From the IMG/VR virus record IMGVR_UViG_2563366965_000001, positions 1 through 41,751 of that record: a stretch of DNA of 41,751 nucleotides; one strand, given 5' to 3'. The notes beneath the pieces are model-generated. The model ran no database searches and was not told the origin of the DNA. It saw nothing but the letters and a program-made list of their open reading frames with translations. The translations under genes and the position numbers were made by a program. Position 1 is the stretch's first letter, and the number at the start of each line of letters is the position of its first letter. The stretch is from a virus (lineage: Duplodnaviria > Heunggongvirae > Uroviricota > Caudoviricetes). Positions 5,389 to 8,213 of this stretch are shown piece after piece.

Positions 5389-5436
5389 TTTGCTGCTCCT
5401 CATCATATCGACCCTGCAAGGTCGGTTGGTTTCTCC

Positions 5437-5525
5437 ACAAAACAGAGAAGAACACCTGCGGTGGCAGCCGCCCGGATGGATTGGGTTATGAGCCCGTCGT
5501 CCGGTGATGCTCTTCTCTGTTTTGT
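5437..5525. repeat. Long inverted repeat: 15-bp perfect arms (ACAAAACAGAGAAGA / TCTTCTCTGTTTTGT) separated by 59 bp, inside a GC-rich structured spacer
   Basis: Arms at 5437-5451 and 5511-5525 are exact reverse complements; a second 9-bp perfect palindrome-hairpin (GGTACCAGC ... GCTGGTACC) lies at 5535-5569. Confidence 0.7.
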
Positions 5526-5702
5526 AAAAAGGACGGTACCAGCCGGAAGCAATGGTACAAGCTGGTACCGCCAGGACTACACACAGCATAAAGTTGTGGT
5601 GCCGGGTGCCTCCCGGTGCCTGGCGAAGGTTGCACACCAGACGGGTGGGTATCCACAGAAGGTCGACTGTCAGCCTCAACCTTAACCCGCGTGCGCTGAG
5701 CC

Positions 5703-5792
5703 GCATTCACCACAACGCTAAGGATTCTCTTTGGTTGAAAATACTTAGCTGTTATGTGCCTGTCTTTTCACCACTTCAGGCTCGGTGGTATC
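5703..5792. repeat. Direct repeat A, copy 1 (90 bp; leader/promoter-like block upstream of small plus-strand ORF)
   Basis: 89/90 identical to 6358-6447; partial similarity extends about 15 bp further upstream. Confidence 0.9.
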
Positions 5793-5825
5793 CTTTTAAG
5801 CCCGTATACATAAAAGGAAAATCAA

Positions 5826-6071
5826 ATGACTTTTGATGAAAAAGAACTTGATAATGCAATTAATAAAATCATCGTAACGTCGCTCTTTTCCTGTCTCAGC
5901 GACACTCAGCAGAAACAGTTCTACGAATCGGCTTTCAACATGATCGAGCGTTGTTGTTTCTGCGATGCCGACGAGTTACCTGAAAAAATCAGGAAACAGT
6001 TGGCTGATGCTCTTCGAGTGCGACTTTCTGACCAATTTTCTGAAATGTGCTCTCCGAATTTGGACAAATAG
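5826..6071 (+). CDS. Hypothetical small protein (81 aa), cassette 1 plus-strand gene
   Basis: AAGGAAA RBS 7 nt before the ATG; only ORF covering 5826-5988; AT-rich. Confidence 0.4.
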   Translation: MTFDEKELDNAINKIIVTSLFSCLSDTQQKQFYESAFNMIERCCFCDADELPEKIRKQLADALRVRLSDQFSEMCSPNLDK

Positions 6072-6264
6072 AAAAAGGCCATTTCCATTCAGGGTCTGAT
6101 GGAAATACTTCAGCCTGTTCCAAAGCACGGCGTAAAGAGAATACAACTCCAGCCATAATCTGATGTTTCCCATTGGTCCAGCTATCGCCGCTCTGATCTA
6201 CAGGAGCGGCTATGTCGTATGACCAAACGACTTCACCACTATTGTTTAAAATCTGGACTTTCAT
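5989..6264 (-). CDS. Hypothetical small protein (91 aa, MKVQILNN...), cassette 1 minus-strand gene; 3' end overlaps the convergent plus-strand ORF by 83 nt
   Basis: Start region lies inside repeat B copy 1; GGAGG upstream (long 12-nt spacing); the C-terminal 25-30 residues may not be translated. Confidence 0.4.
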   Translation of the reverse strand: MKVQILNNSGEVVWSYDIAAPVDQSGDSWTNGKHQIMAGVVFSLRRALEQAEVFPSDPEWKWPFSICPNSESTFQKIGQKVALEEHQPTVS

Positions 6265-6285
6265 TTTGTTCTTTAACCTCCAGAT
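6223..6285. repeat. Direct repeat B, copy 1 (63 bp; contains the RBS and first 14 codons of the MKVQ gene plus a 4-codon remnant ...SGG-stop of an upstream gene)
   Basis: 60/63 identical to 6851-6913. Confidence 0.9.
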
Positions 6286-6357
6286 ACGGGCGTTTAATTG
6301 CCCCGCCGAACAGCTCTTTTCCGCAATAGCTGCAATGTCTTTCGCGCATCAGCCTGC

Positions 6358-6447
6358 GCATTCACCACAACGCTAAGGATTCTCTCTGGTTGAAAATACT
6401 TAGCTGTTATGTGCCTGTCTTTTCACCACTTCAGGCTCGGTGGTATC
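6358..6447. repeat. Direct repeat A, copy 2
   Basis: See copy 1; followed by a different small ORF. Confidence 0.9.
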
Positions 6448-6481
6448 TTGGTGTTTTCATATAGCCAAGAAGGAAATAGTT

Positions 6482-6673
6482 ATGACCAAAGAAGAAAAAA
6501 TTCTTTATTTATTCCAACTATCGGTTAAGACTCACACTGCATATCAGACTGCTGCCATGACATCAGATAAAAATTACAGTACGTCAGAAAACCCGATAGA
6601 CGACATAAGCAAGCTTTACGATAAGTTCGAAGCACTACTCGATAAAAAGTTTGCTGAGGCTGGGCTTGAGTGA
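6482..6673 (+). CDS. Hypothetical small protein (63 aa), cassette 2 plus-strand gene
   Basis: AAGGAAA RBS before the ATG at 6482; only ORF covering 6482-6634. Confidence 0.4.
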   Translation: MTKEEKILYLFQLSVKTHTAYQTAAMTSDKNYSTSENPIDDISKLYDKFEALLDKKFAEAGLE

Positions 6674-6811
6674 TTGTTGAATAATCGACAAAACCCAACT
6701 TAAATTTTCGTCAGTGGGCTCGATGCCATGTGCGGTGAGCTCACTTTTCAAAACTCCAAGCAATTCAGAGCTGATTTTCAATATATCTGCTTGATTTCTA
6801 ACTATTCCCAC
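6635..6811 (-). CDS. Hypothetical small protein (58 aa from GTG; 68 aa if the ATG at 6841 is used), cassette 2 minus-strand gene
   Basis: AGGGAGGA RBS 4-5 nt before the GTG at 6811; 3' end overlaps the convergent plus ORF by 39 nt. Confidence 0.4.
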   Translation of the reverse strand: MGIVRNQADILKISSELLGVLKSELTAHGIEPTDENLSWVLSIIQQSLKPSLSKLFIE

Positions 6812-6850
6812 TTTTTCCTCCCTTGGTCTACGCGCGGTCATGTTTTACGC

Positions 6851-6913
6851 CCAAACGACTTCACAGTTATTGTTTAAAATCTGGACTTTCATTTTGTTCT
6901 TTAACCTCCAGAT
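6851..6913. repeat. Direct repeat B, copy 2 (here the MKVQ reading frame is truncated to 15 codons; the ...SGG-stop belongs to the intact ClpX-ZnF gene)
   Basis: Minus-strand reading gives ATG AAA GTC CAG ATT TTA AAC AAT AAC TGT GAA GTC GTT TGG GCG TAA. Confidence 0.9.
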
Positions 6914-7199: not shown

Positions 7200-7288
7200 G
7201 ATATAAAATCTAACTTAACTTAGTTATTATGGCAAGAGAAAACACCAAACTTTTCTTAGTTCGGTGCCTTAGTTAGAGAAGAGAGGTC
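7200..7288. promoter_or_regulatory. OL/PL-like operator region (leftward early promoter)
   Basis: 14-bp palindrome CTAACTTAACTTAG (7210-7223) matches the CTAAN-N4-CTTAG sites seen between cI and cro; further CTTAG half-sites nearby. Confidence 0.4.
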
Positions 7289-7915
7289 TTAGAGTTCGTA
7301 TTGAACTCCTTTGACTACACCAATGATAAGGCAATTACCATTGATAGGGATGTTGGGATACCGAGGATTTAATGGCACTAAAAACTTTTGAGGGCCATCG
7401 ATGACTAATTTTTTTACTGTAGCTTCGTTTGTTCCATCAAGTCGAGCGATGACTATTTTTCCATGACGAGGTTCTGCATCTGGATCTACAATCACTGTTG
7501 CGCCTTCTGGTATTGTTGGGAGGCCATTAGGGTTAGTCATGGAGTCACCTTTAACCTCTAATGCAAATGAGTTATCACCAATCTTTAATGATGTATCTAC
7601 CCACTTGTCCACTTCACTAAACACTTCTGCTGCCCTGCACTCAGTAAACTGCCCAGCCTGAACCCACGATATTACAGGAACTCTGCGCATGTTTGTGACG
7701 AGTTTGCCTTCAAACTCAGCACCATAAAGAATGTAATCTATTGACGTATTGAAGAACTTCGCTAATTTCGAAAGTGCCTCCCCACCAGGGGTATTGATGT
7801 CTTTCTCCCAGTACCCCACAGCAACGTCGCTTACTCCACAAAATTTACCCAATTCTTTCTGGGACGTTCCGGTAACTCTTCTCAGAGCTTTTATACGCTG
7901 ACCAACCGTTTCCAT
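7289..7915 (-). CDS. cI: CI-type phage repressor (XRE helix-turn-helix + S24 LexA-like autopeptidase)
   Basis: N-terminal HTH (QKELGKFCGVSDVAVGYWE); C-terminal GDSM serine motif and downstream lysine (KIVIARL); divergent from the cro-like gene. Confidence 0.85.
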   Translation of the reverse strand: METVGQRIKALRRVTGTSQKELGKFCGVSDVAVGYWEKDINTPGGEALSKLAKFFNTSIDYILYGAEFEGKLVTNMRRVPVISWVQAGQFTECRAAEVFSEVDKWVDTSLKIGDNSFALEVKGDSMTNPNGLPTIPEGATVIVDPDAEPRHGKIVIARLDGTNEATVKKLVIDGPQKFLVPLNPRYPNIPINGNCLIIGVVKGVQYEL

Positions 7916-8012: not shown

Positions 8013-8213
8013 ATGACAACTGACGATATCGAAAGCTACTTCGGCAGTATTGAGAAAGTTGCTGCTTTTTTCGGCATAACAACTGAAGCCGTTTATCAGT
8101 GGCGAAACCGTCCGGGCCAGTTAATTCCAAAAGGACGTGCAGCAGAAGCTGCATATAGAACTTGCGGACGGTTGCCATTTAAACCTGAGCTTTATGAAAA
8201 ATCTAATGGATAA
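8013..8213 (+). CDS. cro: Cro-like helix-turn-helix repressor
   Basis: 66 aa, GGAGGG RBS; VAAFFGITTEAVYQW resembles a Cro/YdaS-type HTH; divergent from cI. Confidence 0.7.
   Translation: MTTDDIESYFGSIEKVAAFFGITTEAVYQWRNRPGQLIPKGRAAEAAYRTCGRLPFKPELYEKSNG

Follow-up and report, generated by a model that had tools for sequence, protein, structure and literature searches.

Prophage accessory genes beside the repressor are a main source of superinfection exclusion and of functions that alter the host, and their position in lambdoid prophages has so far been described case by case. Among them are the morons and exclusion genes (sieB of lambda, P22, and Rac; rexAB), which are small, AT-richer accessory genes near the immunity region, placed for expression from the prophage and apart from the lytic operons. 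In Escherichia coli K-12, ymfI–ymfJ of e14 and sieB–ydaF of Rac were listed as convergent excludons from RNA-seq data (ExcludonFinder, PMC12288877); that work described the overlaps only, and neither a leader nor a slot. Two small RNAs (sRNAs) of such prophages are also known: sRNA-17 of E. coli K1 RS218, a 193-nt RNA of an mEp460-like prophage confirmed by rapid amplification of cDNA ends (RACE) and northern blotting, the deletion of which raises yfdP about 95-fold (PMC7719688), and KilS of K-12, an Hfq-associated RNA seen by RIL-seq and northern blotting. Here, we analyzed the virus record IMGVR_UViG_2563366965_000001 of IMG/VR (positions 1–41,751; hereafter, the window, 41,751 nt in full), which carries two tandem cassettes of small, convergent, overlapping genes beside its repressor gene.

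Both cassettes have the same design, in which one unit consists of a structured leader on the plus strand, a small plus-strand gene (the cargo gene), and a minus-strand gene of the early-left operon with an overlapping 3′ end. The explanation that we judge best, and on balance probable, is that the window shows double occupancy of a variable cargo slot, which SfV-, e14-, and Rac-like lambdoid prophages keep between the immunity repressor and the remaining early-left (pL) genes, and that the cargo would be expressed in the lysogen and silenced by read-through from pL. One common design of leader, swappable small cargo, overlapping early-lytic gene, and divergent sRNA describes loci in about 45 enterobacterial species and offers a concrete model for separating lysogenic from lytic expression at the slot.

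The window is an SfV/e14-like lambdoid prophage whose kin are phages SfV, SfII, and mEp460, and its sequence matches that of an E. coli 1332KP prophage with 100% identity. The early-left operon lies on its minus strand in the order cI-like repressor, pL-like promoter, ClpX-type zinc-finger gene (the first gene of this operon in the phage), two cassettes, a GC-rich non-coding stretch, yfdP, yfdQ, and yfdR (Table 1). The initial annotation had described an AT-rich region next to cI, in which two near-identical blocks, A and B, flank unrelated pairs of open reading frames (ORFs), and these observations were reproduced. The G+C content of the cassettes is 0.42 and 0.40 compared with 0.51 for the window, a deviation in base composition of the kind used to recognize morons, and the region adjoins the cI-like repressor and cro. 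The copies of block A are 91 nt long, 99% identical, and 655 nt apart, and those of block B are 80 nt long, 89% identical, and 628 nt apart; both are slightly longer than claimed, and the earlier 63-nt core of block B falls within the present one. Given this length and identity, the repeats cannot be attributed to chance. The same AAGGAAA stands upstream of both plus-strand ORFs, and block B does hold the ribosome-binding site (RBS) and start of the gene encoding MKVQILNN, which unit 1 carries whole and which ends after 15 codons in unit 2. Neither block is a neutral linker. Block A combines two functional pieces, the sRNA 5′ end at 5702–5717 and the first half of the leader at 5758–5792, with a divergent control region at approximately 5718–5757 between them. 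Because block B is the beginning of a coding gene, the cut that made unit 2 fell inside this gene and not at a cassette boundary.

Table 1. Features of the double cassette region and its surroundings in the window (R1, covariance model of the leader; SD, Shine–Dalgarno sequence; S1, S2, and P3, stems of the leader given as 5′ arm/3′ arm).
Feature	Position	Strand	Remarks
Prophage sRNA gene, kin of sRNA-17, KilS, and STnc100	5526–5717	−	Predicted 5′ end inside block A; runs to the terminator before yfdP
Intrinsic terminator	5526–5572	−	GGCGGUACCAGC...GCUGGUACCGUCC hairpin 5531–5572 and U run 5526–5530; sequence and fold
Block A, copy 1	5702–5792		Composite: sRNA 5′ end, divergent control region, first half of leader
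Leader of cargo gene 1	5758–5828	+	R1 62.5 bits, E 4.6e-11; S1 5758–5762/5777–5781; S2 5770–5774/5785–5789; P3 5791–5798/5811–5818; SD AAGGA (5814–5818) inside P3; ATG 5826
Cargo gene 1, 81 aa, phrog_3311	5826–6071	+	R-C-C-x-C-x-A-D motif conserved
Early-left gene 1, 91 aa, SfV orf33 family, phrog_3195	5989–6264	−	Convergent with cargo gene 1, 83-nt 3′ overlap
Block B, copy 1	6206–6285		RBS, ATG (6264), first 19 codons of the 91-aa gene
Truncated 5′ part of mEp460-type sRNA-17/early-left leader	6286–6376	−	Fused to block B, overlaps the start of A′; 90/91 identical to mEp460
Block A, copy 2 (A′)	6357–6447		Repeat of block A
Leader of cargo gene 2	6413–6484	+	R1 90.8 bits, E 2.7e-17; S1 6413–6417/6432–6436; S2 6425–6429/6440–6444; P3 6446–6452/6464–6470; SD AGGA from 6471, directly after P3; ATG 6482
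Cargo gene 2, 63 aa, phrog_2605	6482–6673	+	Convergent 63-aa genes at the same place in Kluyvera (L132), L133, and L134
Early-left gene 2, 58 aa from GTG 6811	6635–6811	−	Convergent with cargo gene 2, 39-nt 3′ overlap
Block B, copy 2 (B′)	6834–6913		15-codon remnant of the MKVQ gene (6892–6845)
ClpX-type C4 zinc-finger protein, 73 aa	6901–7122	−	Pfam PF06689, E 1.4e-10; PGAP annotation of the identical locus
pL-like promoter, TTGCCA-17-TAGATT	7207–7235	−	Consensus match only
cI-like immunity repressor (LexA family, S24)	7289–7915	−	Slot context
cro	8013–8213	+	Right of the cassettes, near the repressor

The leader, about 70 nt long, comprises two interleaved 5-bp stems, S1 (GCCUG/CAGGC) and S2 (ACCAC/GUGGU), and then a hairpin, P3. 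Its conserved part is a 35-nt element (GCCTG TCTTTTC ACCAC TT CAGGC TCG GTGGT ATC) approximately 35–40 nt before the plus-strand start codon, which is kept in diverged prophages found via their protein homologues, despite unrelated upstream DNA. P3 begins at the U of GGUAU in every true copy, with 29 distinct complementary arm pairs, a C/A-rich loop of the form (G)UUCUCACACAG, and the Shine–Dalgarno sequence (SD) within or abutting its 3′ arm. Minimum free energy folding gave P3 in both leaders of the window, S1 in leader 1, and S2 in leader 2. The consensus obtained with MAFFT and RNAalifold recovered S1 only, because P3 was out of register, and this problem was solved with a same-register subset and a covariance model, R1, constructed from 18 in-register leader sequences. 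R1 matched exactly two sites in the window and 56 in the other searched loci (designated below by L numbers), a count that leaves out eight weak matches to an extended variant (type 2) and one probable false hit. P3 covaries strongly across the leaders: in the R1 alignment, 94% of its cells are paired and both-side changes are present at 6/6 pairs, 0/500 shuffles reached the observed values, and all slid controls were far lower. The G·U pairs of S1 and S2 exist only when the plus strand is read, and compensatory changes were found in both stems of L130 and in S1 (GCCCG/CGGGC) upstream of Rac sieB. The interleaving of S1 and S2 suggests an H-type pseudoknot.

No Rfam family matched the leader at the gathering level, the best score in a search with 91 nt being 12.7 bits (E 4.1, chance level), and a literature search by sequence strings found no paper that contained the leader sequence. 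Among the closest known parallels are structured 5′ leaders that gate translation, namely the fourU and ROSE RNA thermometers and the pseudoknot operator upstream of T4 gene 32. Many leaders likewise have a hairpin that pairs with the SD, through a UCCUU pyrimidine stretch, and a compact part of the leader, which may be pseudoknotted, precedes the start codon by about 35 nt. However, these systems have no sequence or model match to the leader, and the SD lies outside the stem in about half of the members. We propose only tentatively, and with less than even confidence, that the leader may be a previously undescribed cis-regulatory RNA class that, throughout Enterobacterales, gates the translation of prophage accessory or exclusion genes expressed in the lysogen, and that leader and convergent early gene together may form a standard plug-in socket for exchangeable small cargo. 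If this were true, the signal for the leader would be temperature, a small molecule, or a factor of host or phage origin. What is gained in practice is a defined RNA motif absent from Rfam and a simple way to find small prophage proteins of approximately two dozen unstudied families. The possibility that the leader contains a conserved upstream small ORF was considered and rejected; an ATG often stands just before GCCTG, but in three different frames. A second leader variant was observed right of block A in L007, L013, L005, L010, L024, L056, and L097; it reads GCCTG-CTTTTAGCCACATCAGGCGAGGTGGA plus an extension and scores 28–35 bits with R1, and the extension before the RBS has two CCCCAACAAC motifs (GGA sites, CsrA type) and a ACAAGGATTC motif (ARN repeats, Hfq type).

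To the right of the block A core, 120 viral contigs contained at least 11 unrelated 600-nt classes, almost all of which start with an RBS and a plus-strand ORF, and three different sequences were found right of block B. The exchange of cassettes at conserved linkers, as the initial annotation had it, is thus upheld as far as variable inserts flanking block A are concerned, but not as far as the blocks would be neutral linkers. Diverged loci were collected by scanning one genome per species with a degenerate DNA motif; protein-based retrieval of such loci gave none in the genome collection and only near-identical copies in the viral collection. In the motif scan, the leader was detected before unrelated small genes in about 45 Enterobacterales, including E. 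coli K-12, whereas other phyla were at the count expected by chance. The exact 35-nt variant occurred in 852 of 5426 E. coli genomes. A repressor homologue was located 0.5–3 kb downstream of 47 of the 59 leader copies, on the opposite strand in 47/47, and the leader sits beside repressor genes of many immunity types. Across the leader loci we counted 24 cargo families and 20 partner families, and in 44 of 51 cases the cargo gene had a convergent ORF overlapping it by ≥ 4 nt. The combinations of cargo and partner re-assort: a single partner family was seen beside six cargo families, four of the cargo families occurred with two or more partner families, and some cargo genes (L013, L024, and L056) have no minus-strand partner.

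The slot is similar to a known accessory-gene hotspot system, in which many unrelated genes are swapped among related elements at a fixed position between conserved flanks. It differs from that system in phage type and position, in its cargo (∼60–170 aa, with no recognised defence systems), and in being built around an RNA leader and a convergent early gene. Integron-like cassettes were also considered and provisionally set aside, since the conserved element here is an mRNA leader ahead of the genes and homology accounts for the recombinants. Two further observations concern the collected loci. Many cargo proteins have a start resembling a CPxC zinc ribbon (e.g., MKSITKPCPICG, MEIISRCPVC; L230, L256, L237, L277, L240, L221, L244, and L133), and these proteins form several related families of 63–97 aa. 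In addition, leader-bearing contigs labelled as Geobacteraceae, Veillonella, “Proteobacteria,” Chryseobacterium, and Vagococcus (L259, L261, L266, L238, and L270) carry typical enterobacterial prophage sequence, and probably represent contamination of those assemblies.

The sequence comparisons show that all four small genes of the window code for protein and that the same gene pairs, again convergent with overlapping ends, are present in diverged prophages (Rac-like, Salmonella, Kluyvera, and Edwardsiella). Cargo gene 1 has homologues with 62–63% identity in the same place, also convergent and overlapping, in L125, L128, and L130, and homologues of the 91-aa protein (57–71% identical) lie directly after the repressor in Rac-like and Salmonella prophages. 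Polymorphism counts by codon position among near-identical cassettes were uninformative due to too little divergence, and the ratio of nonsynonymous to synonymous substitution rates (dN/dS) on diverged loci was used instead. In the 54 non-overlapping codons of cargo gene 1, the proportion of nonsynonymous differences (pN) was ∼0.2 and that of synonymous differences (pS) was 0.64–0.88, with dN/dS of 0.12–0.17 where dS was computable; in the 64 non-overlapping codons of early-left gene 1, dN/dS was 0.12–0.25. With pN of ∼0.2 and pS of 0.5–0.9 over the non-overlapping parts of the two, both genes of cassette 1 are, by this comparison, under purifying selection outside the overlap. For early-left gene 2, the start at GTG 6811 is most likely because all diverged homologues (64–81% identity) are 58–59 aa long; GGGAGG stands 5 nt before this codon, and reading from ATG 6841 (6635–6841) would give 68 aa. 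In Kluyvera, L133, and L134 this gene is paired with a convergent 63-aa gene at the same 39-nt overlap. The arrangement is also present in Edwardsiella phage EPP-1 at ∼40% identity for both partners: the cargo gene 2 homologue is 40% identical, and early-left gene 2 is 41% identical to the C-terminal half of the 121-aa EPP-1 partner.

As the initial annotation had stated, none of the four proteins belongs to a recognised family; Pfam at its curated cutoff and PADLOC gave no match, and the PHROG matches are all to families without an assigned function. The 81-aa and 63-aa proteins have no homology to SieB in Pfam or PADLOC, and genomic position alone is shared with Rac sieB. Over these four and other cargo proteins taken together, the Pfam, PHROG, and PADLOC searches added one helix-turn-helix match and one sub-threshold LprI match. 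The structure prediction for the 91-aa protein was unusable (mean predicted local distance difference test score, pLDDT, 46).

The two K-12 loci are the closest counterparts of the window and two ready test cases. The e14 order is ymfH, block A, ymfI (plus), ymfJ (minus, 63-nt overlap), and ymfK repressor, and its block A is identical to that of the window except at the C/T site where the window's two copies differ. The Rac order is kilR, KilS, a diverged leader, sieB (plus), ydaF (minus, 4-nt overlap), ydaG, and racR. Both loci are similar to the window in having an sRNA region, a leader, a plus gene, an overlapping minus early gene, and a repressor; they differ in their cargo and partner families, and of the three loci only that of the window has two units in tandem. 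The convergent ORF pairs proposed for the window (81 and 91 aa with 83 nt of overlap, 63 and 68 aa with 39 nt) are real and recurrent, although the antisense-coupled pairs suggested in the initial annotation are better termed candidate convergent excludons, of the kind published for the K-12 counterparts, where the transcript overlap is on record (PMC12288877). In the late SOS response of K-12, ymfJ RNA and protein rise and ymfI hardly changes (PMC11002266), and the list for the lytic YmfT iModulon is without ymfI.

The following mechanism is suggested. In the lysogen, pL would be off, and the cargo gene would have its own transcription and translation, governed by the leader. After induction, pL transcription would run antisense through the cargo gene and leader, so that cargo and early gene would exclude each other, and the cargo product would be off during phage growth. 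A comparable convergent 3′-end overlap in the lambdoid control region is that of lambda OOP RNA and cII, which would permit interference of the RNase III type or the collision type; in the window, unlike OOP/cII, both partners are protein-coding. To judge from sieB in Rac, which occupies the position that had been pointed out as typical of exclusion genes, the cargo genes are most probably exclusion-type accessory genes expressed in the lysogen. Like morons, they are placed for prophage expression apart from the lytic operons; the definition of a moron does not include a shared structured leader.

Several points weigh against this explanation or parts of it. None of the eight tested cargo proteins (the two of the window and six others) matched a known defence model, so the term “exclusion-type” derives from position and sieB alone. 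The promoter and terminator of its own that a moron should have were not seen on the plus strand around the cargo genes: crude consensus scans, which did not cover the extended −10 type, gave no sigma-70 promoter upstream of the leaders, and a similarly crude scan predicted no terminator after either cargo gene. The promoter of the plus genes in the window is thus putative, and the readings draw on expression in K-12 rather than in this prophage. Moreover, the invariant TGGTATnnT of the leader resembles an extended −10 box, and its use would place the RNA start inside P3. As for the RNA structure, S1 and S2 are almost invariant, with one clear compensatory change each in the alignment (that of L130) and one more for S1 in Rac, and S2 has an unpaired C-U in three sequences, so that the pseudoknot is only suggested. 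The SD follows just after P3, and is not inside it, in about half of the leaders, which means that simple SD masking is not the whole story. Finally, the co-inheritance of the pairs may follow simply from their physical overlap.

This last point also bears on the alternative that each cassette is a cognate two-protein module, either toxin/antitoxin or exclusion/anti-exclusion, in which the early-left protein would neutralise the cargo protein during phage growth and the 3′ overlap would couple the two by antisense. The pair of cassette 1 stays together in four lineages at 61–68% amino acid identity, that of cassette 2 in Kluyvera, L133, and L134 and, at ∼40% for both partners, in EPP-1, and the overlapping segments are conserved in both reading frames. 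However, such co-inheritance is predicted by the overlap itself, and although the window's two pairs are conserved together, pairing is not fixed across the slot, given the re-assortment and the partnerless cargo genes described above. Furthermore, the convergent layout is not the co-directional operon of type II systems, and no Pfam or PADLOC match places the proteins in a known toxin or antitoxin family. The toxin/antitoxin idea, which the initial annotation had also raised, is weakened by these results and little supported, and we regard the two-protein module as unlikely. A different alternative concerns the right half of block A, which might be mainly a DNA element, namely an extended −10 promoter (TGGTATnnT) for the cargo, rather than an RNA structure. 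The T, G, T, A, T, and final T of this motif are invariant or nearly so in 42 diverse sequences, the consensus scan showed no other sigma-70-like promoter upstream of the leaders, and in some phages the motif is preceded at a distance of only ∼20 nt by the start of a divergent gene, leaving little room for a promoter. Yet transcription starting ∼7 nt past this box would drop the 5′ arm of P3 from the RNA, which is difficult to reconcile with the strong covariation of P3, and the compensatory changes in S1 and S2 (L130 and Rac) and the wobble pairs fit a plus-strand RNA. A mainly DNA-based role therefore seems quite improbable, although the two readings can be compatible if there are two start sites.

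The simplest alternative is that blocks A and B are ordinary mosaic joints with no function of their own, the tandem being a neutral accident and the opposite-strand ORFs minor. The rarity of the tandem (9/5426 genomes) is in its favor, as is the fact that its joints coincide with sequence common to phages and that the right edge of unit 2 cuts a gene. In contrast, the leader has been kept, with covarying pairs, across about 45 species in which the adjacent DNA is otherwise unrelated, the left part of block A matches a mapped sRNA end, and all four ORFs are conserved coding genes, including those on the opposite strand. The results on selection, leader spread, and covariation have already largely refuted this view, which we regard as very improbable, and the blocks are not the ordinary conserved linkers that the initial annotation had named as its own possible refutation.

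The left part of block A is, from its homology, probably the 5′ end, and probably the promoter, of an Hfq-type minus-strand sRNA. The first 16 nt of the window sRNA, CGTTGTGGTGAATGCG (5717–5702), are the end of the published “full length” sRNA-17 primer, and the RACE primers place sRNA-17 on the window's minus strand (PMC7719688). The terminator is homologous to the 3′ ends of sRNA-17 (GGTACC hairpin and U run) and KilS, the 3′ half of the region aligns with KilS of K-12 Rac, and the entire region has a near-identical counterpart in K-12 e14, where it carries the annotation ymfH. The Rfam family STnc100 (RF02076) matched over its full length at 5523–5738 (minus strand) with 39.5 bits and E 1.4e-6, below its gathering score of 47. 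The RNA is predicted to fold (z = −2.3) with a closing helix, an unpaired stretch, and a strong terminator. In homology, strand, and position the region agrees with sRNA-17 and KilS, and its place upstream of yfdP fits the de-repression of yfdP in the sRNA-17 deletion. The RNAs of the sRNA-17, KilS, and STnc100/PasD group are likewise minus-strand RNAs directly upstream of early-left genes, and they share with the window RNA the 5′ GUUGUGGUGAAUGCG or the 3′ GCUGUGUGUAGUCCUGGCGG plus terminator. The window RNA differs from sRNA-17 in its middle part, its ends are predicted from homology, and STnc100 and PasD, unlike the window RNA, are usually in the late region near Q or stx. A “frameshifted hypothetical protein” annotated by PGAP at 5403–5713 (minus) and the 103-aa “YmfH” of K-12 over the same stretch (L290 4070–4381) are probably artefacts over the sRNA gene, as the stretch is GC-rich and its RNA fold is homologous to sRNA-17 and KilS. 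Pairing between the sRNA and the leader (GCUGUGUG with the CACACAGC loop) was considered and dropped, the duplex energies being no better than those of shuffled sequences.

We also analyzed the origin of the tandem, given that most related prophages carry one cassette and that the tandem was present in 9 of the 5426 E. coli genomes, all complete. The 71 nt between B and A′ (6286–6356) are not filler but, together with the first bases of A′, match the mEp460 sRNA-17 gene in its 5′ part at 90 of 91 positions. In other phages, block B is followed on its right by one of three sequences, each of which occurs with either cassette: an N-terminal extension like that of SfV, the ClpX zinc-finger gene, or a leader segment, ACGGGCG...GCCTG/CGCATTCACCACAAC. 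This leader segment follows a consensus TTGACA promoter with palindromic operators in L100, L047, and L106, and is the 5′ part of sRNA-17 in mEp460. Some phages have two copies of the segment GTTGTGGTGAATGCG..., one within block A and the other right of block B, where it is the early-left leader; the near-identity of 6286–6376 to the mEp460 segment indicates this double occurrence of the opening bases of block A. If a phage with the order A, cassette 1, B, leader recombined by unequal crossover with one of the order A, cassette 2, B, zinc-finger gene, cI, the result would be exactly the order seen, and from this sequence arrangement we infer that the tandem arose by unequal recombination at the repeated leader segment. 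Independent tandems with other gene content, consisting of two leader–cargo–partner units each, were found in L133 (2833–3402) and L134 (2831–3402), which indicates that the stacking of units is recurrent and not unique to the window. Within the early-left leader fragment, a 40-aa ORF (MRRLMRERHCSYCGKELFGG..., 6239–6361, minus) runs into block B; mEp460 sRNA-17 has a 25-aa version of it, its CSYCGKE motif recalls the start of ClpX-type zinc fingers, and it may be a remnant or a small leader peptide.

Two minor observations concern the surroundings of the cassettes. Between the sRNA terminator and the start of yfdP there is an inverted repeat at 5437–5525 (25-nt arms, 84% complementary, 39-nt spacer), which is kept in mEp460 and K-12 e14. 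Phages of the mEp460/e14 type have no N gene; put-like RNA antitermination has been proposed for yfdP-type phages (PMC12315714), and the hairpin at 5437–5525 and the sRNA region are candidates for such a role. About 5 kb left of the cassettes (L001 702–1274 in E. coli 1332KP; window ∼1–570), the host record annotates a Panacea-domain protein. Its gene borders a tRNA-dihydrouridine synthase remnant at the prophage end and is followed by a small hypothetical gene. Panacea domains are associated with the antitoxins of toxin-antitoxin systems.

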